Assembly: GCA_014905635.1 (NCBI GenBank)
Contig: JABVCE010000017.1
Span: forward strand, 248,001 to 312,000
Direction of reading: 5' to 3'
Length of the DNA: 64,000 bases
Origin: Scenedesmus sp. PABB004
Lineage: Eukaryota
Shown here: positions 27,395 to 46,900 of the stretch, in pieces
How the letters are laid out: each line of letters starts with the position of its first letter
Position numbering within the stretch: the stretch's first letter is position 1
Program-made: the position numbers and the translations under genes
The notes under the pieces: model-generated
What the model was told of the DNA's origin: nothing
The model's database searches: none
What the model saw: only the letters and a program-made list of their open reading frames with translations

Positions 27395-28374
27395 GTCGCG
27401 CCACTGGGCGGTCGCCCGCGGTCGGCCGGCGAGCTGCGGCGCCGGACTGCCCGGGCGCGGCGGGCGGCGGCGCGCTGTGTGCGCGGCAGCGGCGGTGCAG
27501 CGGCGGCGCGGGCCCGCGCCTGCGCCCCGGCGCCCGCGCGCGCGGCGCTGCTCAGACCGGGCCACGGCACCGGCCTGGAGGAGGGCCTGAGACGTGGTGG
27601 CGCTCGAGTCGGAGCGGCGGCGGCCAGGGCGGGGCGGCCAGGGCGGGCGCGGCGGGCGGTGCCGCACTCGGTCGGTGGGCCTGCGCCGCCGGCCTCGAGC
27701 TCGCCGCCGAGCTGCAGGCCGCACCCAGCCGCCCACAGGTGCACCTGCTGCAGCTGCCAGCGCTCCGCAAACGTCGCTCGGCCCCACTGCTCGGCGCGCG
27801 CCGCCACCTGGTCCGCGCACCGCCGCGTCCCAGGACAGGGGGTCTCACAGCTGCTGCGGATGGACGCCAGGGCTTGCCAGCTTTCTGGCAGGCCAGACGG
27901 CGGCGGCGGCGGCGTGCGCGAGCCGCGCGCCAACCCCTGAAACTCCGACCGCCACCCGCGTAGGAAACAGTTCGAGCGCGCATTTTTCGCTGCTCCACGC
28001 GTGCGTGCGAGCCGCGTGGCGCTGCGGCGCCCGCGCCCCCGCGCGCCAACTGCCGCCGCGACGCCGCGCCGCCCGATCGGCCGCGGCGCGGGCGCCCAGG
28101 AGCAAGCTACGGCGGTCGCAGGGCGCTGCGAAGCGCGCGGGCGAGTCCTGTCACAGGGCCGGGTTCTCGGCCAGCCACGGCCCGCCCGCCTGCCGGCCCG
28201 CGCCGGCCCCCCGCCCGCCCCCGCCCTGGCCGCCCCACACGCCGCGCCCCCGACTCGAGCGCCACCTCCCGGGCCCACCAGGCCGGCGGCATGGCCCCCA
28301 GCGTGTGAGCGGCAGCGCGTCTGGCAGCCCAGCTGGGCAGCAGGGCTGGCTGCGGCGCCATGCGCGGCGGACAC

Positions 28375-31300
28375 ATGTCCTACGACGGCGACGAGCTCAC
28401 CAAGGGCAGCTGGACCCCGGAGGTGCGCCGGCGGCGGCGGGCGGCGCGCCGGCAGCAGCGGCCCGCGCCGCCCGGCCCCGCGCCGCGGCCGCGCCGCGCC
28501 GGCGCAGCTCGCGGCGCCGGGTGGGGGCTGGCACGCTCACTCCCCGCGCGCCCCGCAGGAGGATGAGGCGCTCAAGCGCCAGGTGGCGCGCCTGGGCGCG
28601 CGCAACTGGAGCCTGGTGGCCCGGGCCATCCCGGGGCGATCGGGCAAGAGCTGCCGGCTCAGGTGCGGCAGGAAGCGTGCTGGCAGCTTCACCCGGGCGG
28701 GCAGGGCGTGCGGGGGCCCGAGGCGGCAGAAATTGGCGCCCGGGGCGCTCGACATGCGCGACGGCCGCCCGCGGGCGCCCGGGGGCGACAGTACTCCCGG
28801 GCGGGCGGGGGCAGGTCGGCCGGCTTTGGTGCCAGCCCCCCGCCCCGCGCCCGAGCTGCGCCGCGGCCTGTGGCGGTGATGGTTGGGGCCGCTGGCCAAC
28901 CACCCGCCACCGGCCGCAGCGGCGCCGCGGCGCCGCGGCGACGGGTCATCCGGGCGCGGGGCAGCCCACCGCGCCTCACGGGCGCCTGGCGGGGCGCGCG
29001 CAGGCGCCTGGCGGGCCGGGCCAGGCCTGCCATGGCGCCGCGCGCCCGCCCGGCGCGGCGTGGCGGCGCTGCAGGCGCCGCGGCGCCCACCAGGCGCGGG
29101 ACGCATTATGCCCAGCACGATGGCGCAGTACCCGCGCCCCTGCGAGCCGGGGGGCGGGGCGGGTGGTCCGTTTGCGGGGCCTGCCGCCCGAGGCGCGCGC
29201 CCCGAGCTGCCCGGCAGCTTCCAGGCGCTGCCAGGCGCCCCTCCCGGCCGGCCGGTGGCGGCGGCGGCGCGGCGGCGCCGCCGGGCGCCGCGGCGGGCGG
29301 CCGACCAGCGGCGACCAGCGCCACCCGCCGCGCACCCGCCGCAGCAGCAGGCCCCCATGGCCTGCTGCCTGCTCCTCCCCCTGCCCCGCCGCCGCAGCAC
29401 CGCGCCGACGGCCCCGCCCGCCCCGCCCCCGCCCCCGCCGCACCGCGCGCGACGCGCCGCCAGGTGGCTGAACCAGCTCAACCCCAACGTCCGCAAGGGC
29501 CCCTTCTCGGCTGAGGAGGACGCCGCCATCATGGCGGCGCACGCCATCTTCGGCAACAAGTGGGCCAGCATCGCAAAGCTGCTGCCGGGCAGGTGCGCGG
29601 CGGCGGCGCTCTCTGCGAGCGAGCGCTCGCAGGACGGCGGCCGCGCCGCAGCTCGCGCTCGCGCTCGCGCGCCGTCCTGCAAGCAAACCCTGCAAGTTAA
29701 ACCCTGCGCCGCTCGCTTGCAGGACGGACAACGCCGTCAAGAACCACTGGAACAGCACGCTGAAGCGCCGCCGCGCCGACTACGCGCCCGGCGGGCCGCT
29801 CGACGTCTCGGCCGTCACCGCGGCGCTGCAGCGCCGCCTCGCGGCGCCCGGCGGCGACGACGGTGCGCCGCCGGCGCCGGCGCCGCCGCCGCCGCCGCCG
29901 CGCGCGCCGGGGCCCGCCGCCGCCGCCCCGCGCGCCGCGCCCGACCTGCCCGCGCGCGACCGCGTCCGCGTCCGCCGCGCAGACGAGGGCGACGACGAGC
30001 TGCAGCAGCTGCTGCAGCAGTTCAACGGCCTCGAGTCGACGGAGACGTTTGAGACCGACCCGACGGCGCCCAGCAATGGCCGCCTCACGGCGGCCGCGGC
30101 CGCGGCGGCGGCGCAGCACCACAACGTGACGCTGCACCACCTCGCCGGCGCGGGCGGCGGCACGAAGCGCGGCCGGCCCGGCGACGGCGGCGGCGGGCCG
30201 AGCCCCGGCCCGCTGAGCCGCGAGGGCCTGGCCGCGGCGGCGGCGGGCTTCCGCGAGGGGCCCAGCCCAAGCGGCCGCGGCCGCGGCGCGCGCCGCGGCG
30301 GCGGCGGCGGCGGCCCGCCCGCCGGCTGGGGCGCCGCCCGCGGCGGCGCCGGGGGTGGCCGCAGCGGCCGCAGCGGCGGCTACACGGACGACCCAGACTG
30401 GGACGAGGCGGAGGAGGAGCTGGAGCACGAGGGCGCGTGGGGCCAGCACGCGGGCTGGGGCGGCGGCGGCAGCGGGCTGCAGGAGCAGCAGCTCGGCGGC
30501 CACCACGGCGCGCTCGCGCGGCGGCACTCCTTCCCCGCGCAGCGCTCGCCGCACCACTCGCTCGGGCTGCTGCTGAGCGCGAGCAGCGCCGGCCTGATCA
30601 GCCCGGGGCGAGGGCTCACGGGCGCGCTCGACGCGGTCGCGGCGGTCGCGGCGGCGGAGCTGCAGGCGAGCAGCAGCAGCGGGAGCCACGCCGACGCGGC
30701 GGACGCCGCCGCCGCGGCCACGACCACGACGTGCGGCCCCCGCGGCGACGGCGGCGGCCCCGGCCTGCTGGCGCTGAGCGGGCTCGACTCGCTGCACGCG
30801 GCGGCCGCGCTGGCCAGCCCGGCGGCGGCCAAGGCCGCGGCGGCGGCCGCCGCCGCGCTCGGCGCCGATCCCGCGGCCGCGGCGGCGGGCTACGGCCCCG
30901 CCGCGGCGGCGGCCGCGGCCGCGGCGGCTGCAGCGGCCGCGGCCGCCGCGGCCGCGGGCGGCGAGTGCCCCGGCAGCGGCGGGCGCTCCACGCCCAGCCG
31001 CGCGGCGCAGCGGCGGCTCATGCAGCAGCAGCTGGAGCAGCTCGGGCTGCAGGCGGGGCTGGAGCCCGCGGCGGCGGCCGCCGCCGCGGCGGCGGCCGCC
31101 GCCGCGGCGGCGGCGGCCGCTGCCGCCGCCGCCGGCATCGACGAGAGTGACGAGGACGGCGAGGACGACGACGGCGGCGGCGGCGACGACGGCGACGGCG
31201 ACGGCGCGGCGGGCGGCGGCGTGCGCCGCAGCGCGCGGCCCAAGAAGCGCCGCTGCTGGAGCGGCGAGCTCGGCAGCTCGAGCGGCGACGAGCGCGGGCC

Positions 31301-33226: not shown

Positions 33227-34111
33227 GCGCGCGGGCGCTCAGCTCCCGCGCGCTGCGCCGGCGCGCCCGCTGCGCCGCTCCCGGGGCGCGTGCACGCGCG
33301 CCACGCATCGCCGCGCATCGCCGCCGCGCGGCCCGAATGATCTGCACTGCCTGTGGCATGACTGAGCCTTCTGAGCCTCTCTGACCCATTCCAACGCGCC
33401 ACCCTCGCGCACTTGCGCGCTCCCGAGCAGGGAGGGCCCGCCCTGACCCGCAGCAGCACCAGCGCGCGCGCCGCCGCCGGCGGGCCCTGCGCCGCCGGCG
33501 GCGGCCGCCGGGCGCGACGCACGCACAACAAAACATGGGGCCGCCGCGCATTTCCGCGGCGCCCGCGTTGCTTCGCTTAGACCCCCCACCTAGACCCACC
33601 GAAGACTCGCAGGACCAGCGCTGGGCGAGCGCCCCCCCCTGACCCGACTCTAGCGACAGCAGCAGCAGCACCCTGCATGCGGCGAGGCATGGTTTGGCGT
33701 GGGAGTCGCGCACCCTGACGCTGGTGGCGCGCGCGTGTGTCGTGTCCGTGTGCCCATCTCCTTAGCCTCACTCATTGCGCGCGCCACACCCTGTGGTTGG
33801 CGCGGCGCATCGCCCGGGCTCGGCGCTGTACCCGTAGCGACCTGACCTGGGCGCCGTTGGCTCACCGATTGCTTCTGACCCGCCGGAGCTCCAACAAGCG
33901 CGGCGCCGCCCTGCGCGAGGCAGCGACGCCCCGCGCGCCGGCGGCCGGCGGCCTCCTGTCGGCGCTGCTGCAGGTTTTTAGATTTCATTTGACGCGTTTC
34001 ACCCCTTTTGACCACCGCAGGATGGTGACGACTGACCGGAAGAATAAGCTGTAACGGCGACGCAGGCCCGTGCGGCAGGCCACTCCCGCCACCGGCCGTC
34101 GGTTGCGCGCC

Positions 34112-35847
34112 ATGGAGGCGGCGCCGCCGCCCCGCAAGCGCGCCAAGATGGCCAGCGGCGCTGCCGCTGCCGCCGCTGCTGCCGCCGCCGACGCGCCGCC
34201 CGTGTCGGCGGTGGCCTACCGCTGGTCGCCGGGGAACGTCTTCGCTGCCATCGACGCGGGGAAGGCGCCGGCGGAGAAGATTTTCGACCGGCCGCACTGG
34301 TTCGCGCTGCTGGACAAGATGCCGGTGGCGCGCGGCCACGCGCTGCTCATCGCCAAGCACCCCGTCGCGACGCTGCTGGAGAGCGGCATGCCGCCCGAAG
34401 CGCTGGCCGACGCGCTGCCGGACCTGCAGGCGCGCCGTGCGCGGGGCGGCGAGCAGCGGCGGCGGCCGCGGCGGCTGGCGCGGCGCGGGGCCGCCGGCGC
34501 GCCCGCCGGCAGCGCACTGCGCAGTGCGGGCGCCACCAACCCTCCTTGCCCGCCCGCCGCCGCAGGCGCTCACGCGCGCGGTGCAGCGCGCCACGGGGGT
34601 GCGCGGCGTGCGGCTGCGGCAGAACAACGGCCCGGCAGCGGGCCAGGTCGTGCCGCAGCTGCACTGGCACGTGCTGCCCGTGGAGGCGCCCGAGGACGAG
34701 GTGCGTGTGTGCCTGTGCGCGCGCCGCGGGCAACGGGCGCGCGGCGGCCGCAGAGACGGCGCACCGGCCGACGCGGCCGACGCGCCGCGCGCCCGCGTTT
34801 GCAGGACGCCGCGCGCCGCGCGCCGCTGCGCGACGAGGACGCGGGGCCGCTGCTCGCGGCGCTGCGGAACGCGCTGCCGCCGGGCTACAGCGGCCCGGGC
34901 GCGCACGTGTGGGTGCCGTCGGCGGGCGCCATGGAGCGCCTCGGCTGCCTGCTGCGCGAGCTCTGCGTCCCCGGCACCGTCGTGCTGCTGCGGGGCCACC
35001 TCGGCAGCGGCAAGACCGCGATCGCCCGCGGCATCGTGCGCGCGTTCTGCAGGCGCGGCGCGGCGGCTTGCGCGCTCGCGCGTCCTGCGCGTCCCGCCGC
35101 GCGCGTGACGTGGCGTGTGACGTGTTTCTGACGACTAACGCCGCCCGTGTGTGACACGGCACGCAGGGACCCTGCCATGTTTGTGCCGAGCCCCACCTTC
35201 CTGCTCAATCTGAGCTACGAGGAGGACGTGGCGGCCGAGGAGGAGGACGGCGCCGGCGGCGCGGACGCCGCCGGCGGGGACGCGGACGCCGCCGGCGGGG
35301 GCGCGGACGGCGCGGCCGGCGCGCCACGCCGCCGCCGCCGCGCCGGCGCGGCGGTGCACCACATGGACCCCTACCGCCTCGGCATCACCGACAAGATGGC
35401 GGGGCTCATCGATTTTGAATCCGCGTTTGAACGCGACGTCTGCGTCATCGAGTGGCCCAGCAAGATGCCGGCGGGCGTCATGGCGCTGCCGCGGCGGTGC
35501 GGCGGGGCCGCGGCGCGCCGGGCGGCGGCGGGGGGAGGGGAGTGGGGTCCGGCGTGCACGCCCGGCCCCGCGCGCCGCGCGCCGACACGCCGACGCCGCC
35601 GGCCGGCCGTGCGGCGTCGCAGGCGGACGCTGGAGGTGACGATCGCAGGCACCGGCGCGCAGGCGGCGGGGCGGCTGGTGCACATCGCCTGCAGCCAGGA
35701 GGAGGCGGCGCAGCTGGCGCCGGAGCGGGATGCGCAGGGGCAGGCAGCGCAGCCGGCGCCGGAGCAGGCGCAGGAGCAGCAGGAGCAGCAGGAGCAGCAG
35801 GAGCAGCAGCCGGAGCAGCAGCAGGCGCAGGAGCAGCAGCAGCAGGC

Positions 35848-35879
<32 letters not shown>

Positions 35880-38737
35880 GGCAGCAGCAGGGGCAGCAGC
35901 GACGGCGGAAGCAGAAGGCCGCGCGGCAGGCGGCCGCTGGCGAGATCAACGGCGCCGCTGCCGGCGGCAGCGCCGCCGCCGCCGCCGCCGGCGGCGGCCC
36001 CATCGCGCAGCTGCTGCTCAAGTGGCGAGAGGAGGGGCTGCCTGAGCCGCAGGTGAGCCGGCGCGCCAGCCCGAGCCGGGCGCTGGGCCGGGGGCAGGGC
36101 GGGGGCCGCGGCGGCGGTCGCGGCCGCAGCAGCCCACGCCCCACCGCGCGCCCCCGCGCCCGCCGCGCCGCCCGCGCGCAGGTGCGGTGGCGTGAGCCCT
36201 CCGCCGGCGACGCCGCGCCGCCAGGCCCGACCGGCGCGGGCGGCAGCGGTGGCGGGCTCGCGCCGGCCGGCCCGCCCGAGGGCTGGCTCGTGCTGGGCAT
36301 TGAGAGCAGCTGCGACGACACCGCCGCCGCGGTCGTGCGCGGCGACGGCACCGTGCTCTCGCACCGCATCGCCTCGCAGGCGCGCGCTGCGCGCGCTGCG
36401 CGCTGTGCTTGCACCGCGCCGCGCCGCGCTCGCCGCCGCGCCGGCCAACCGCCGCACCAACCGCCGCGCCAACCGCTGCCCGCGGCAGGCGGGGCTGCAC
36501 GAGCAGTACGGGGGCGTGAAGCCCGACGTCGCGCGCGACGCGCACGCGGCCGCGATCGACGCGACTGTTGCCGGCGCGATTGCGGCCGCGGGGCTCACGC
36601 CAGCGCAGCTCTCCGCCGTCGCCGTCACGGTCGGGCCGGGGCTGTCGGTCTGCCTGCAGGCGCGCGCGCGCTGCACGCGCCGCGGATTTGCACCGCGCCC
36701 GTGCCCGCCCCGCGCTGAACCCCCGCCGCCCGCCGCTCGGCCAGGTCGGCGTGCGGCACGCGCTGCGCATCGCGGCGGCGCACGGCCTGCCGTGGGTGCC
36801 GGTGCACCACATGGAGGCGCACGCGATGGTCGCCGCGATGCCCGGCGTGCTCGGCGCGGCGGCGGCGCTCGACGCGGCCGACGCGCGCGGCGGCGGCGCG
36901 GCGGGCGCGCGCGCGCAGGAGGGACCGCTCGCGGAGCAGGGCGCGCAGGCGGCGGCGCAGGACGGGCAGGTGGCGGCGGCGGCGCAGGCGGCGGAGCACG
37001 AGGAGGGCGGCGAGCAGCAGCGCATGACCTTCCCGGCCCTCCTGCTGCTCGTGTCCGGCGGCCATAACATGCTGGTGCGCCGCGGCCCCCGCTCGCGCCG
37101 CCGCGCCGCCCGTGACGCGGGCGGGGCCCGCCGCCGCCGCCGCCAGCGTGGCGCCGCGCCGCCGCCGCCGACGTCGCCGTGCCACGCTGCGCGCGCCAGG
37201 TGCGCTGCGAGGGCGTGGGCCGGCACACCATTCTGGGCACGACCATCGACGACAGCATGGGCGAGGCCTTTGACAAGGTGGCGCGCCTGCTGGGCATCGC
37301 CGCGGTGCCAGGTGCGGCGCGGCGCGGCGGGGGCTTAGTGCCCGGGGCTGCCGCAGCCCAGCGCGCCCGCGGCGCCGGGCGCCGCGGCCGTGCGGAGCCG
37401 CCGCTGCCGCTCCGACGCCCGCGCGCGCGCCGCCCCCCGCACTGGCCGGCGCAGGCGGGCCGCACCTGGAGCGCCTCGCGTCGACCGCGGGCCCGGCCGA
37501 CGTCGCGGCGCTGAAGGGCCGCGTCGCGCTGCCGATGCGGCGCGACACGACGAGCTGCAACTTCAGCTTCAGGTGCGTTCAGGGTCTAGGTTTCAGGGTT
37601 GAAGGATTATGGGTTGAGGGTTACAGATAAACCAGCCGCTAGCTGCAGCCTCACGCGCTCACGCGCGTGCCGACGCATCGCCTCACCCCCCACCACCACC
37701 GCCGCCGCCGCAGCGGCATGAAGACGGCCGTGGCCAAGCTGGTCGAGTCCGAGCGCGCCGCGCTGCGCGACGCCGGCGCCGACGACGATGCCGCGCTCGG
37801 CAGGTCCGCCCCGCGCGGCGCGCGGCGCGCCCCCGGCCCTGCTCTCCCTTCCTTTCAAGCCCCAGCCCAGCGCTCGCATCACCCGCGCGCCCCCTCGCCG
37901 CCTCACCCCCTCTGCCGCCGCCGCCGCCGCCTCGGCCGCCTCGGCCGCCTCGGCCGCAGGTTCAACGCCGCGGTCGCGGCGGCGTTCCAGGAGACGAGCG
38001 TTCGCTTCCTCGCGGAGCGCACGGCGCGCGCGCTGGCGCGCTGCGCCAGCGACGCGGCGGGTGCGACGCGTGCGGCGCCGGCGGGCGGCGGCGTGCCGCT
38101 CTCGCGCCGCTCTCGCCGCCGCTGGCTCCCTCCCCTCACGAGCTCACGAGCGCACTGAGTTGAGCGCACGCCGCCCGCCCGCGCGGCGCAGAGGCGGGGC
38201 AGCCCATGGTCACCTGCCTCGTCGTCGCCGGCGGCGTCGCGGCCAACGCCAAGGTGCGCCGCCGCCGCCGCCGCCACCCTCCCGCCCTCCGCCCCCCGCC
38301 CCCCTCCCTCGCCCCTTCCCGCGCCCCTCTTCCGCGCCCGCCCGCCCGCACCACCACAAACAGCACGCCACACCGCACACCGACCCCCCGCGCAGGTGCG
38401 CGCCGCACTGCGCGGCGTGGCAGACTCGTTCGGCCTGCCCTGCCTCGCGCCGCCGCCGCGCTTCTGCTCTGACAATGGCATCATGGTCGCCTGGACCGGC
38501 GTGGAGCGCGCGCGGCTCGGGCTCTGCCGCCCGCCGCCGCCATCGGTCGACCAGGCGCGGCGCGGCGCGCCGCGCGTGGCGCGGTGCATTGCCGCGCCCG
38601 ACCGCCCCCGCACCGCGGCGTCCCGCGCCCCTGCCGACCCGGCCCGCCCGCGCCGCCGGCGCCCCCGCCCGCAGGTCGACGCGGCGGTGGAGGTGCTGCC
38701 GCGCTGGCCGCTCGGCCCGTGGACGCGCGAGGAATGA
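34112..38737 (+). CDS. tsaD: Fusion protein: HIT-family hydrolase + TsaE (YjeE) ATPase + TsaD/Qri7-type tRNA t6A threonylcarbamoyltransferase, 15 exons
   Basis: Exons 34112-34429, 34566-34700, 34805-35052, 35167-35496, 35623-36052, 36182-36379, 36489-36659, 36745-37074, 37200-37311, 37455-37572, 37714-37803, 37960-38060, 38192-38253, 38396-38554 and 38675-38737 splice in frame. HIT: LLDKMPVARGHALLIAK...NNGPAAGQVVPQLHWHVLP. TsaE: GHLGSGKT, VPSPTF, HMDPYRL, IEWP. TsaD: VLGIESSCDDT, GGVKPDVA, VTVGPGL, HHMEAH, LVSGGH, DDSMGEAFDK, FSFSGMKT, VAGGVAAN, CSDNGIMVAW. Confidence 0.9.
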
Positions 38738-39500
38738 GCCCGCAGAACGCCAAGCACTGCAAGCTGCTGCACTGAGGCCGGGCGCGGTCAGCCACGGGGA
38801 GAGAGGCCCCCATGACGCGGCGGTGCCGGGGCGCGGGCTGGGGCGAACCCCGGCCCCGCAGCGCTCGGCGGCCTGCGGCGCGGCCGCGGCATGTGTGGCC
38901 GGCGCGTCGGTCGAGCGGCGCGGCTTTCACACCAGTCACAGCAGCAACCCGCGCCGTCCCCGCTGACCCCCGCCGCCGGTTGACCAGGCAACCAATCGAC
39001 AATGCATCGGGCCGCCAGCCCGCCCGGCGCAGTCCTGAGCCAGAGCGTCAACAGATCTGTTCGAACCACGCCCTGCGTGGCGCCATGCGGAATGTGCAGG
39101 CCGCCCCGGCTCACCGCCCAGCTCGCCGCCCGCCCCACCTCGCTGCCCGCCCCAGTTCGCCGCCCACCCGACCGCCAGCCGCGTGTGCGTCCGCCGCACG
39201 CGCGCACACGCACGCGCGCACACGCACGCGCGTTTGACCACGCCTGCAGCTGCTGGGCGACGTAACCAACGCCGCCGAGCATAGGAGTAGAGTGAGGAGG
39301 GGCGTTTGAATGCAAGGTTGGGGTGATTTCTCAAGTGACCCCACCTCTCAAAAGTGCGCGCCGGCCGCACCGCGCTGCCGCTCAACCGCGGCGCCCGCCG
39401 CGCGGCGGCAGCGCGGGCGCCGTGCTGCTGCACGTGTGCGCGCGTCCACGCGCAGGTGCAGCTCCCAGCCAACAGCCAGCAGGTGCCGCGCGTGCGCGCG

Positions 39501-41300: not shown

Positions 41301-41305
41301 TTACA
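41301..41305 (-). promoter_or_regulatory. TGTAA candidate polyadenylation signal for the reticulon gene
   Basis: TTACA on the + strand, ~360 nt downstream of the reticulon stop. Confidence 0.5.
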
Positions 41306-41665
41306 CGGACCGATTGCGGCAGCAGTGTGTCGCCGGGTCAGCGCGGCCCGCGGGGACGGGAGACCGCGTGCTGGGCGTGCGTTGTACATGCGCGGCGGTG
41401 CGAGGGCCGCCGCACCGCCCGGGGCGACGCGGGAGGTACGGCCGCCCGCTCGCCCGCCGGCGGTGACGCGCGGCGCTGGACCGCGCCGCCCCTCCCCGCT
41501 CTCCGGCCAGGCGGCGGCGCGGATGCGCGTGATGCGATGCCCACTCCCCCTCCCCACCCACGCCCCGCCCACCCCACACCCCGCCCCCGCAACCCTTCCC
41601 CGCAGCGCCGCGCGCTGGCACCGCCCGCTGGCGCCGCCGCGCGGGCAGCGCGGCGCCCCGCCGGC

Positions 41666-43205
41666 TCACTCGGTCTTGCTCGCGGCCGGGCGGGCGCCCT
41701 TCTGGGGCGTGAGGCGGTTGATCAGGTCGGTCGCCTGCGGCAGCGGCGGCGGCGGCGGCGCGGACGCGGACCGCGTCGGCAGCGGGCGCCGCGGCCAAAA
41801 GCTCGCAGCCCCGCGCGCGGCTGCCCGCCGGCCCCGCGCCGCGCGCACGCAACCCGCGCGACCCCGCCCGCGCCCAGAACCGTTCAGCCCTCAAGTCCCC
41901 GAGCCCCGCGCCAGCCCCCCGCAAAGCCGCGCCGCGCGCCTGCTTGCGCGTGTTGGCGTAGTGCACCGCCGCCGCGTCGCGCGCCGCGCGCGCCGCGCCG
42001 TCGATCTCGTCCTTCCGCATCTCATACACCTTCGGCAGGCTGAACGCGCCGAGCACGACTGCGGGTTTGGGTGCGACCGATGGCCGCGTTTGACATGGTC
42101 GGCGGCCGCGTTGGGGGAAGAGGGCGGGCGGGGCGTGGGCTTGGCGGCAAGCGGCGCCGTCCGCCCCGCTGCCCGCCCGGCGCAGAGCGCGCGCGGCGCA
42201 GCACGCGCAGCACGCGCACGCACCGGCGTAGAGCAGCCCCACGGGCGTGATGATGCGCCCGACCCAGCCGGCCACCCAGAGCGCGGCAAAGGCCTTGCCC
42301 GCGAGCGGGAGGTCGGACCCGGAGAGCACGCGGCCGAGCAGGGAGAGCGCGACGTTGGCGCCGCGGGCCGCCTTGTCGGCGAGTGCGCGCGCGGTCGCCT
42401 CGTCGACGCCCGTGCGCAGCACGGCGGGCAGGTGGTCGGCGGGGCCGGTCCTGCGGAGGGTCAGCGGCGCGGGCCGCGGCGGCGCGGGGCGCGCGTCGGC
42501 GAGCGCGTGCGCTGGTCGGCACGCGCCGTCGGGAGGGGGCCGCCGCCCGCCGCCCGGCGCGCGCGGGGCAGGGACGGGGAGGGGCGCCGCGCGGGACTCA
42601 CGAGCCGGTGAAGCGCGCGGCGACGGCCCAGAGCACGCAGCCGAGCACCGCGATCAGGCCCAGGTTGCTCAGCCAGGTGAGCAGCGGCACGCCGCTCCAC
42701 TCCAGAAGCAGGTACAGCGCCGTCGCGCCGCCCAGCACGGCGCCCGACTTGGGCACGCTGTGCCAGAGCAGCAGGTCCTCCACTGCGCGGCGCGGCGAGT
42801 CGGTTGCGGCGCGGCGCGCGCCGGCGGGCGCGCGATGCGCGGCAGCCCGCGCCGTGCCGCCGCCCGCAAGCCAGCGCGCCGGGGCGGCGCGGGGGTGCGG
42901 CGCGCGGGCGCCGCGCCACGCCACGGCGCCGGAGAGGGGCGGGAGGGGCGCAACCAACTGTCGCGGCGCCCTCGCGCGCCAGAGCCGTTGCGGGCCCGCA
43001 CGCGAGCTCTGGCGAGAGATCAGACGACGGCCTGGGTCTACGCGCCGATCGGGCGCCGGGCGCGCCCGCACGGCGCCGGGAGCGGGCGCGTGCGCCGCAT
43101 GCAACCCCCGCGCCGGCGCCTACGGCGCGCGGCGCGGCCCCGCGGCCCGCCAGGGCGCGCACCTGCTTGCAACTGCGCGGGAAGCTGCACCTTGCGGACC
43201 GCCAT
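41666..43205 (-). CDS. Reticulon-like ER-shaping protein
   Basis: VEDLLLWHSVPKSGAVLGGATALYLLLEW, two long hydrophobic hairpins, and AFSLPKVYEMRKDEID, which matches the reticulon homology domain. Five exons. Confidence 0.9.
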
Positions 43206-43904: not shown

Positions 43905-46900
43905 ATGGGCTGCGGCGGCAGCAAGGAGGGCCCGGGCGGCGCGCGCAGCGCCGCGAGCCGCAAGTACCTGGCCGCTCACGCGGCGGGCCACGGCGGCGAC
44001 CCCGGCGCGCCGGGCTTCACTGGCATCGATCTGTACAACTCGGCGCCCGCGGGGCCGCTGACCGCGCGCGAATACAAGGCGCGGCTCGTGACGAGCGAGG
44101 GCACGCAGTGCGTGACGCTGCCGCGCAGCGGCTACACGATCCGCTACGCTTATGTGAGCCAGCGCGGCTACTACCCTGACTCGCCCGACAAGCCCAACCA
44201 GGCGCGGCGCGCGGCGCTTGCTCGTTGTGCTGCGTGCGGCGCTTGCTGCGCGCGCCGCGCATTCGGGGCCGGCCGGCGCGCATTGGGTCGCCGCCGCGCG
44301 GCCGCGCGGCGGCGGCCGCCGCCGCCCACGCCCGCCTGAACCCGGGCTCGCCCCGCACCCCGCCCGGCCGCGCGCGCGCGCAGGACTCGTTCTGCGTGCA
44401 CACGAGCTTCAACGGCGACCCCGAGCAGCACCTGTTTGGCGTGTTTGACGGCCACGGCGACGCGGGGACGCTCAGCAGCCAGTTTGCGCGAGACAAGGCG
44501 CGGCGCCGGCGGCCGCGGCCGCAGTGGCGTGCGCGCGGCGGCGGGCAGCGGGCAGCGGCGCCCGCGCCGCGCGCCCGCGCCGCGCACCTGCCCCGCCGCG
44601 CCGCCCCGGTCGCCGCCCCGCCTAAACCCTGCCCCGTGCTGCGCCGCGCGGCGCACGCGCAGGTCCCGCTCAACCTGCTCGCGAGCGCGCACTTCAACAC
44701 CAACCCCGCCCTCGCCTTCCACCAGGCCATGGTCGCGACCAACCTGCAGTGCCACAGGCGCGGCGGCGGCGGCGGCGGCGGCGGCGGGAGCGCTGCAGCA
44801 GCGGCGCTGCAGCGGCGCCGGGCGCGGCCGCCCCGCAACCCCGCGTCCGCCCCAGCGCCCGCCGGCGCGCCCGCCGCCGGCGCCCCTGCAACCTCCCCTC
44901 AAAAGTCCCCTCTCTAACGCCCTGAACCCCGACACCCGCCCCCTGAACCCTGACAACCCCTAAACCCCAGGTCTGACTTTGACGACAGCATGTCCGGCAC
45001 GACCGCGATCGCCGTGCTCATACGCGGCCGCTCGCTGCTTGTGGCCAACGTCGGCGACTCGCGCGCGGTGCTCGGCGAGCGCGTGCCGCCGGGGCACGGC
45101 GGCGGCGGCGGCGCCGGCGGGTTCATCGCGCGGGACCTGTCGATCGACCAGACGCCGTACCGGTGCGTTGTTTGAATGGTTGAATGTGTTGTTTCAATGT
45201 TTGAATGTGTTGGGGCGGGCAGCGGGCGCGCGGGCGGCGGGCGCGCGCCGGGTGGCGGGCCGGGCCGCCGCCGGCGCGCCCACGCCTGCCCGCCCGCCCG
45301 GCGCGCAGGCGGGACGAGTGCGAGCGCGTGAAGGCCGCCGGCGCGCGCGTGCTCACGCTCGATCAGGTGCGCAGCGGGGTTTAGCGCGTGACCCCCAACA
45401 GGGGTTTTGCGGGTCGAGTGGTCGCAGCGCGCGCGGTCTCGGCCGCCGCCGCCGCGAGGCGCCGGCGGCGCTCGGCGCTCGCCCCGCGCCCGCCCGCCCC
45501 TGGCGGCGCGCCGCGCCGCCTCACCCCCGCCGCGCTCCGCCGCCTGAACCCCGCCGTGCCGCCGGCCGGCCTAAACCCCGCCGCCGCCAGATCGAGGGCC
45601 TCAAGGACCCCAGCCTCGAGGCGTGGACGACGGAGGAGGAGGACGACGGCGACCCGCCGCGCCTCTGGTTTCCCAACGGCATGTACCCGGGCACCGCCTT
45701 CACGCGCTCCATCGGCGACGCGGGTGCGCGCTGCTGCGTGACCGCTGCTTCGGGCGTGCGCGCCTGGGCGGGTTGGCCCCGCGCGCCGCGACCCCGCCGC
45801 TCACACCCCGCCTCTCCTTAACCCCTCCACCCGCGTTCGCAAACCGCGCCCCGAAACACCCCGCAACACCCCGCAACCCCCCGCAAAACCCCGCGCCCGC
45901 CCCAGCCGCGGAGCGCATCGGCGTCTTTGCCGAGCCCGAGCTCGAGTTCCGGCACCTCGGCCCCGCCGACACCTTCCTGGTCATTGCAAGCGACGGCGTG
46001 TTTGAGTTCATCTCGAGCCAGCGCGTCGTCGACATGGTGCGCCGCGCGAGGGTTTAGGGTTCAGCACAGGGTTACGCAGGGTTGAGGGCGCGCGCTGCGG
46101 CGTCGCTGCTGCCCGGGCGCCTGCCTGCTAAACCCCGGAACCGCCCCGCCGCCGCCCCAAAACCCTGCCGGGCCGCCAGGTCTCCAAGTTTGACGACCCG
46201 CACGAGGCGTGCCTCTCGGTGGTGGCCGAGTCGTACCGCCTCTGGCTGCAGGTGGGTCACGCAGAACCCCGGCTGCCGGGGTTTGGAGGAGGGCTCTGAG
46301 CTGGGCGTTGGGCGGCGCTGCCTCCGCGCGCGGCGCTCGCCCGCGCGCGGGGCGCCCGCCCGCCCGTCCCGCCGCCCGCCCGCCTGCGCGCCTCCCGACT
46401 CGGACCGTCACACTCACACTCGAATCGTCGATTCAAATTCAAATTCAACCCCCTCCGCAGTACGAGACGCGCACGGATGACATCACCATGATAATGCTGC
46501 AGCTCAGCGGCCTCGAGACGCCCCCGCCCGGCGCGGTCTCGTCCCTCGCGCGCACCAGGTGGGCCCGCCGCCCGCCCGCCCGCCTGCGCGCCGCCGCCGC
46601 CGCCGCCGCCGCCGCCTGGGTGCGGGCGCCCGGCCCTCAACACCCCGCCGCCGCCGCCCGCCGGGCCAAAAACCTGAAACCTAAAACCCGCCTCGCCCCT
46701 AAACCCAGCCTCGGATACCAGCAGTATGCCCAGACGTCATACCAGCAGGGCCAGGCGGCCGCGGCGCAGCAGGCCGCAGCGGCGGCGCAGGAGGCCGCGG
46801 CCGCGGCGGCGGCGGCGCCGCGGCCGCGGCCGCGGCGGCGCAGCAGGAGGAGGCGGCCGCCGCGGCGGCGGCGGCGGGCCAGCAACCGCCGGCGCCCGCG

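Follow-up and report, generated by a model that had tools for sequence, protein, structure and literature searches.

Whether a eukaryote can carry the ATPase TsaE, and carry it on one polypeptide with TsaD, is the question raised by a locus in the chlorophycean alga Scenedesmus sp. PABB004. The locus lies in a 64,000-nucleotide stretch of contig JABVCE010000017.1 (assembly GCA_014905635.1, positions 248,001 to 312,000), hereafter the window, in which a HIT domain, a TsaE domain and a TsaD domain follow one another on the forward strand. According to the available portions of two papers, TsaD moves the threonylcarbamoyl group from threonylcarbamoyl-AMP (TC-AMP) in the synthesis of N6-threonylcarbamoyladenosine (t6A), and ATP hydrolysis by TsaE governs the cycle of TsaBD (PMC4615747, PMC10484737). 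The accessible text of the first of these, a review from 2015, describes TsaE and TsaB as being without homologues in Eukarya (PMC4615747). With a probability of roughly 0.7, the comparisons described below point to a single HIT-TsaE-TsaD gene that would encode a t6A transferase dispensing with TsaB and carrying its reset ATPase on the same chain, the HIT domain having been acquired later.

Gene structure and conservation of the fusion

The gene model was built from the sequence itself, from tblastn comparisons with four relatives and from a scripted splice check. It opens with an ATG at 34112 and has no internal stops once spliced, and all 14 splice junctions are gapless in alignment with seven homologues (Table 1). 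Among the named relatives compared, the nearest is Tetradesmus obliquus, whose protein (P0002) is identical at 566 of 838 aligned positions (67.5%). The initial annotation had proposed that one gene joins HIT, TsaE and TsaD, and this is borne out by Pfam matches, by the gapless junctions and by the conservation of the fusion in relatives. The locus can be regarded as a genuine nuclear gene in a chlorophycean alga of very high GC content, predicted to yield a single polypeptide of about 965 residues.

An open frame alone carries no weight here. Measured in 2-kb steps, the guanine-plus-cytosine (GC) content of the window is 71-85%, with about 78-80% near the gene, and this extreme composition leaves long stop-free frames of hundreds of codons in all six frames across kilobases; the fusion is demonstrated by homology, not by frame openness. 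An antisense open reading frame (ORF) of 816 codons (35135-37585, minus strand) overlaps the gene; it is a by-product of the approximately 80% GC and not gene evidence. The frame at 35147-36379, at first described as uninterrupted, is indeed open (the open stretch runs from 35132 to 36718), but two in-frame introns lie inside it (Table 1).

The same architecture recurs throughout a class of green algae, the Chlorophyceae. With the TsaE half-exon as query, a search restricted to lengths of 708-2020 residues returned 12 proteins, all of which contain HIT (PF01230), TsaE (PF02367) and TsaD (PF00814), and a profile search yielded 27 proteins, 15 of them with all three domains. The domain order is the same in ten named chlorophycean species, namely Tetradesmus obliquus, Pleodorina starrii, Volvox africanus, V. 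reticuliferus, Astrephomene gubernaculifera, Gonium pectorale, Chlamydomonas eustigma, C. incerta, Chlamydomonas sp. UWO241 and Haematococcus lacustris. One of the 15 three-domain proteins (P0015) is a transcriptome ORF marked complete. In the models P0020 and P0022, the HIT-TsaE-linker part continues into the first TsaD exon and then into intron read-through, the intron being at the position of the exon 6 donor.

These recurrences bear directly on the concern that two or three neighbouring genes have been joined artefactually, either by chance frames in 80% GC DNA or by mis-assembly. Six frames open over kilobases, together with an assembly that has at least one apparent indel, give some ground for it. 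Such an artefact is nevertheless very improbable, as the domain order, the connector and the linker elements recur in the ten named species and in the complete transcriptome ORF, the splice junctions are gapless against homologues, and independent read-through models cross from TsaE into TsaD. Mis-assembly at the junction, or a chance frame, may be taken as excluded for practical purposes from this comparative evidence.

Five of the 14 introns have GC rather than GT donors. These read CAG/GCGCGC or CAG/GCGCGG and differ from the local GT consensus (GTGCGC) only at +2. In the intron that follows IASQ, the read-through models of two relatives continue with a Val codon, which implies a GT donor and thus a T to C change in the window at the orthologous intron. 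GC-AG introns usually make up about 1% of introns; if this gene is typical of its genome, their share there would far exceed that figure. By eye, no alternative GT donor for introns 1 and 3 preserved the frame plus homology, while for intron 14 a GT donor at 38546 preserves the frame but gives a protein three residues shorter than the homologues.

The 3' end of the gene differs from the first description, which placed it at 38737. As assembled, the last exon reads RWPLGPWTREE followed by a stop at 38735-38737, which comes after an apparent 1-nt frameshift; the conserved tail VDARGMSPQNAKHCKLLH lies in the +1 frame and ends with a stop at 38773-38775, probably the true one. The apparent deletion falls within a run of C (GGCCC-GTGGAC) in the region 38710-38775, and is either an assembly or sequencing error or a very recent real mutation. 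The coordinates first given for exon 3 (34805-35052) were correct.

Domains and signature motifs

Pfam families were assigned to translated ORF pieces of 34029-37514 (n=14, of which seven had no family), so that the window protein was scored exon by exon and not as a spliced whole. With a cut-off of 24.8 bits, two pieces matched the TsaD family PF00814 (51.6 and 29.3 bits) and a third fell short of it (23.3 bits); relatives score 197-223 bits, and 238.5 and 220 bits with TIGR00329 (cut-off 207.8). The TsaD motifs HHMEAH, SGGH, DDSMGEAFDK (DDxxGExFDK), GGVAAN and CSDNG (CxDNG) are all intact. HHMEAH, which binds the metal in the TsaD family, and the Asp of CxDNG, a metal ligand by homology, are present in 12 of 12 sequences, and the TsaD and TsaE motifs as a whole are invariant or nearly so across the family. 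The domain is closer to TsaD than to the Kae1 of KEOPS, the arch_KAE1 score being 141 bits against a cut-off of 375; among structures in the PDB, it matches E. coli TsaD at 2e-43 and Kae1 chains at 1e-23 or weaker.

Two pieces of the window matched the TsaE family PF02367 at 27.0 and 28.5 bits (cut-off 26.6), and several relatives score 64-85 bits. The TsaE motifs Walker A (GxxGxGK[TS]), SPT/SF, HxDxYR and EW are all intact and conserved across the family, and the predicted fold matches HI0065, YdiB and T. maritima TsaE (1htw, 5np9, 6n9a_E). The segments that join the domains are conserved as well. Relatives share the stretch that connects HIT to TsaE (DAGPLLA-IRN-LP) and, between TsaE and TsaD, a linker element (LL--WR---LP---V-W) whose Trp (36023-36025) is invariant in 12 of 12 sequences, HIT-less forms included. 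In the AlphaFold model of P0015 this Trp lies in a helix (residues 367-376), and the two 10-residue blocks spanning this helix have a mean predicted local distance difference test score of 83 and 90. The linker also holds a CAG/GAG-rich tract (35700-35900) encoding a Gln/Glu/Ala run that is not conserved; relatives carry low-complexity inserts of their own at this position and within TsaE.

In the HIT domain, exon 2 matched PF01230 at 30.7 bits against a cut-off of 21.5, with exon 1 under it at 20.1; relatives score 52-74 bits. The predicted fold matches the Bartonella Hit-like protein 3lb5 (Foldseek E 5.7e-10, TM 0.80 on target), with other Hit-like proteins, Fhit and HINT ranking under it. 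Compared with HIT hydrolases of the Hint/Fhit branch (3lb5, FHIT 1fhi, HINT1), the algal protein has a matching predicted fold and retains the N-x-G-x-x-A-G-Q-x-V stretch together with the last two His of the triad, but has Gln for the first His and Pro for the preceding aromatic residue, and is fused upstream of TsaE. The solved HIT proteins 3lb5, 2eo4, 3imi and 3l7x align a His with this Gln. Of the 12 aligned relatives, 11 have Gln and only C. eustigma has His, which marks the Gln as selected and not as a product of decay.

Table 1. Features of the HIT-TsaE-TsaD gene and of its surroundings in the window
Feature	Position	Strand	Remarks
Whole gene, HIT-TsaE-linker-TsaD	34112..38775	+	15 exons, about 965 codons
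Exon 1: leader and N-terminal half of HIT	34112..34429	+	GC donor 34430 (CAG/GCGCGC)
Basic motif PRKRAK (K-K/R-x-K/R), nuclear localization signal-like or nucleic-acid-binding tail	34130..34147	+	also in 10 of 17 relatives
Exon 2: C-terminal half of HIT	34566..34700	+	PF01230
HIT motif Q-L-H-W-H	34656..34670	+	Gln at first triad His; second (nucleophile position) and third His kept
Exon 3: conserved HIT-to-TsaE connector (DAGPLLAALRNALP) and N-terminal TsaE	34805..35052	+	GC donor 35053
TsaE Walker A motif GHLGSGKT	34994..35017	+	sequence
Exon 4: mid TsaE (SPTF, acidic insert, HHMDPYRL, IEWP)	35167..35496	+	
In-frame intron, 126 nt, GT-AG	35497..35622	+	homology; removal restores LPRRRTLEV as in relatives
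Exon 5: TsaE end (to about 35692), Gln/Ala-rich low-complexity linker, linker element LLLKWREEGLPEPQ	35623..36052	+	
In-frame intron, 129 nt, GTGAGC...CAG	36053..36181	+	homology; removal joins LPEPQ/VRWR as in homologues
Exon 6: linker end and TsaD start (WLVLGIESSCDDT from 36284)	36182..36379	+	GC donor 36380
Exons 7-14: TsaD catalytic domain	36489..38554	+	36489-36659, 36745-37074, 37200-37311, 37455-37572, 37714-37803, 37960-38060, 38192-38253, 38396-38554; GC donors 36660, 38555
TsaD metal-binding motif HHMEAH	36805..36822	+	invariant in relatives
Asp of C(S/T)DNG motif	38471..38473	+	invariant in relatives
Last exon (exon 15)	38675..38775	+	38675-38718, then +1 shift, 38719-38775; apparent 1-nt deletion at 38718/38719, where tblastn switches frame
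Myb DNA-binding domain pieces	27941-30049	+	Pfam (matches about 28.5-29.6 kb)
Reticulon gene	41304-43119	-	Pfam; at least two introns, GT-AG
PP2C phosphatase piece	45575-46054	+	Pfam

Relationships of the TsaD domain and order of assembly

A TsaD tree was calculated from 64 rows and 364 columns (L017, L056, L031 and L019 left out; GCP1 rows from Viridiplantae only). The sampled bacteria split from all eukaryotic rows (support 100/99), and all 32 TsaE-bearing rows form one clade (97/96). The HIT-bearing rows, together with P0149, form a further clade (100/99) that is nested among HIT-less TsaE-TsaD rows, and it is because of this nesting that HIT is regarded as a later addition. We read the tree as indicating that TsaE joined a GCP1/Qri7-like TsaD first and that HIT was added later, in the chlorophycean line. 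P0149 keeps the connector motif (IRNSVP) inside the HIT-bearing clade, in a model without a HIT domain; either HIT has been lost or the first exon is missing.

The rows of GCP1 type form an unresolved set adjoining the TsaE-bearing clade, and the chlorophycean TsaD-only proteins P0023, P0024 and P0026 group together with this type (99/95). In Astrephomene, the fusion (P0008) and a TsaD-only paralogue (P0026) occur in the same species. Chlorophyceae thus appear to have two bacterial-type TsaD genes, and the idea that the fusion TsaD is simply the chlorophycean orthologue of GCP1 was rejected, since a separate GCP1-type paralogue exists. Membership of the Qri7/OSGEPL1/GCP1 orthogroup does not hold either, the fusion falling in the clade of TsaE-bearing proteins and having an acidic leader that does not resemble a presequence. 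For proteins shorter than 464 aa, the named rows among the best 120 relatives are all green algal or land plant proteins designated "Glycoprotease 1 / mitochondrial TsaD", with 39-57% identity. The best bacterial matches in one genome scan were from Alphaproteobacteria (3e-64, 3e-58) and many Bacteroidota, and the scan also returned a few other groups. Its sample was picked by the patterns GIESSCDD and SGGHNMLV and did not include cyanobacteria.

The HIT-less proteins form a wider family. In an HMMER profile search of 1.84 billion representatives, the HIT part was found in only five of the best 150 matches (P0007, P0001, P0022, P0170 and P0025), and 17 of 23 re-scanned proteins contain TsaE and TsaD without HIT (461-738 aa). 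Metagenome proteins of this kind (P0016-P0019, P0148-P0157 and others) belong to the same clade as the algal fusion and have the SPSY/SPTF, HxDPYRL and EWP motifs as well as the Trp of the linker; they differ in having no HIT, and many are compact (550-620 aa) and intron-less. P0171, P0190, P0201, P0208, P0210, P0243 and P0248 are further members. On metagenome contigs with a GC content of 57-71%, the genes are uninterrupted ORFs (for example L087, 979-3111, and L088, 4196-6349), and some HIT-less proteins are compact and AT-rich. No HIT match was found near the HIT-less genes at 80 metagenome loci with flanks of up to 6 kb (tblastn, three fusion queries, E <= 1e-4). One neighbour of the L088 gene encodes a Glyco_transf_90 protein, which hints at a eukaryotic source; a search of the short metagenome contigs for poly(A) ends, as a sign of eukaryotic mRNA, gave nothing usable. 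Other TsaD fusions were also seen, namely one with an aminotransferase of class I/II (P0220, 1017 aa) and one with a GNAT acetyltransferase (P0027, 825 aa), the latter probably the bacterial RimI-type arrangement.

Compartment, function and significance

The proposal that the protein is organellar was not supported by its N-terminus. The leader is short, has no presequence and contains two acidic residues among the first 45 (1-7 in 17 relatives), whereas six of nine GCP1-type proteins examined (P0023, P0024, P0026, P0057, P0078 and P0141) have 0-1 acidic residues and look presequence-like. A t6A enzyme of the chloroplast or the mitochondrion, its HIT domain proofreading TC-AMP, nevertheless has arguments in its favour. 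The accessible part of an overview from 2022 reports t6A in chloroplast tRNAs and an unknown enzyme for it in C. reinhardtii (PMC8877259), TsaE is otherwise a bacterial component in the available text of the 2015 review (PMC4615747), and the TsaD part is of the bacterial or Qri7 type by the comparison with PDB entries given above. Set against these are the lack of a presequence, the acidic residues, the K-K/R-x-K/R motif in the leader, the TsaD-only paralogue of Astrephomene and the imported appearance of P0023 and P0024, and the fact that HIT-less TsaE-TsaD relatives begin directly with TsaE. An organellar enzyme is therefore doubtful, with non-canonical import a possible route.

A cytosolic or nuclear enzyme for t6A or a related product, working beside KEOPS or replacing it, is a similarly tentative proposal, in which the basic motifs would act in import into the nucleus or in binding tRNA. 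Sphaeropleales-like and Chlamydomonadales sequences have the K-K/R-x-K/R motif in common, eight of 16 HIT-less TsaE-TsaD proteins have a K/R-rich C-terminal tail, and the leader, without a transit peptide, is predicted to be disordered (residues 1-40 of P0170). These leader and tail features fit nuclear import or tRNA binding. Short basic motifs are commonplace, however, and this one is missing in seven of 17 relatives, some of which have a questionable first exon or begin at Met number two; in the window, a second in-frame ATG directly follows the motif at 34148.

That the protein acts in t6A synthesis without TsaB, its reset ATPase being tethered, appears likely. Qri7 works as a homodimer without TsaB, and the proposed mechanism follows from this and from the pathway roles of TsaD and TsaE. 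The protein would be a tRNA A37 t6A transferase that uses TC-AMP supplied by a Sua5/TsaC enzyme, and the tethered TsaE would perform the reset step carried out by free TsaE in bacteria. TsaB would not be needed, as the TsaD domain could pair with itself like Qri7 and/or through a HIT dimer. HIT, which keeps its nucleophile His, would most likely bind or hydrolyse a pathway adenylate, whether TC-AMP or AMP-linked by-products, or may just dimerise the enzyme; its action on TC-AMP is a conjecture. The absence of a TsaB domain, noted in the initial annotation, extends from the protein to the whole window, in which three bacterial TsaB queries gave no hits at E <= 0.01. No second PF00814 region was found in the 22-50 kb part of the window.

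Several points weigh against this interpretation. The TsaD equivalog TIGR03723 (296.1 bits) was missed by P0015 (287.2 bits) and P0002 (265.6 bits), while the TsaD-only paralogues P0024 and P0026 pass it (312.4 bits). Relatives score 20-47 bits with the TsaE equivalog TIGR00150 (cut-off 60.1), an insert splitting the domain. The H-x-H-x-H triad of HIT is incomplete, its first His being Gln in the window. The full-length model of P0015 has a predicted template modelling score of 0.51, its domain packing not being confidently predicted. The assembled gene has a frameshift 18 codons ahead of its conserved end. Finally, with a bacterial sample without cyanobacteria, a plastid origin of the clade is possible.

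The missed equivalog cut-offs also lend some weight to the possibility that the module has left t6A synthesis, its carbamoyl-transfer fold of the Kae1/TsaD type and its HIT domain serving some other reaction that depends on an adenylate, with a nucleotide or a small molecule as substrate. The paralogue has a long stem in the tree, with an intact copy of the GCP1 type alongside, and the available text on Pandoravirus TsaN, a modular TsaD enzyme, reports that it can make t6ADP instead of modifying tRNA (PMC10484737). Such a departure is improbable given that the motifs of TsaD and TsaE do not vary within the clade, and given that TsaE is described only within t6A synthesis in the accessible parts of two papers (PMC4615747, PMC10484737). 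A t6A transferase remains our preferred reading. To our knowledge, TsaE has no other established partner process.

The proposed TsaB-free t6A transferase can be placed beside the known systems. Bacterial TsaB-TsaD-TsaE (E. coli; T. maritima TsaB2D2E2, 6n9a) has TsaD and TsaE with all signature motifs in common with the algal protein; in the alga, however, these form one polypeptide with a conserved linker and an extra HIT, encoded by a eukaryotic nuclear gene with 14 introns, and TsaB was not found in the window. Qri7, OSGEPL1 and plant GCP1 are the nearest short relatives and are likewise eukaryotic, nuclear-encoded and TsaB-free, but the GCP1 type has neither TsaE nor HIT, often has a presequence-like N-terminus (six of the nine noted above) and is retained in Chlorophyceae alongside the fusion, whose TsaD falls in a separate clade. 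In archaeal Kae1-Bud32 (PRPK), as in the fusion, the transferase is joined to an ATPase or regulator, without TsaE or HIT. Pandoravirus TsaN (TsaD-TsaC-SUA5-TcdA) also joins the transferase to pathway partners and, in the available text, is without TsaE and HIT (PMC10484737).

The surroundings of the gene contain no t6A-related neighbours in the 22-50 kb part of the window by Pfam; only Myb, reticulon and PP2C sequences were found there besides the gene itself (Table 1). Two introns of the reticulon gene use GT donors, unlike the five GC donors of the fusion gene.

No description of a eukaryotic TsaE, of a TsaE-TsaD fusion or of a link to HIT was found in the full-text literature, subscription journals and supplements lying outside the search, and none is mentioned in the available portions of PMC4615747, PMC9654439, PMC10484737, PMC8877259 and the preprint 10.1101/2024.06.14.598963. 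No paper was found on the HIT-less TsaE-TsaD family in the same literature. The supposition that the architecture was undescribed therefore stands as regards papers; the proteins of the ten named species are themselves already in public databases, annotated with Pfam domains and with automatically assigned names, 'Glycoprotease 1' for example. We consider the gene to be a real case of a conserved, undescribed variant of the t6A machinery, with a plausible mechanism.

A wider view, which is speculative and rather unlikely as a whole, is that many microbial eukaryotes have a second t6A route, a TsaB-independent and self-resetting TsaE-TsaD, that works outside the organelles beside KEOPS and in which the chlorophycean HIT handles TC-AMP. 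Working outside the organelles is suggested by the presence of basic import or tRNA-binding motifs and the absence of a transit peptide. If true, such a route would contradict the claim in the 2015 review that Eukarya have no TsaE homologue. The t6A activity on algal chloroplast tRNAs is unassigned, as described in the accessible part of PMC8877259, and the gene is a candidate for it as well, although its sequence does not favour the chloroplast.

Reviews of t6A recognise three systems, namely TsaBDE of bacteria, KEOPS of archaea and eukaryotes, and the minimal Qri7 of mitochondria. The present gene and the TsaE-TsaD clade would add a fourth, in which the reset ATPase is covalently attached to a eukaryotic TsaD and TsaB is absent. 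With the HIT domain there would be a first indication of an enzyme handling the unstable TC-AMP. The fusion may offer a natural single-chain system for studying the role of ATP hydrolysis by TsaE, and it has orthologues in algae that are tractable in the laboratory (close relatives of Chlamydomonas, Tetradesmus and Volvox).

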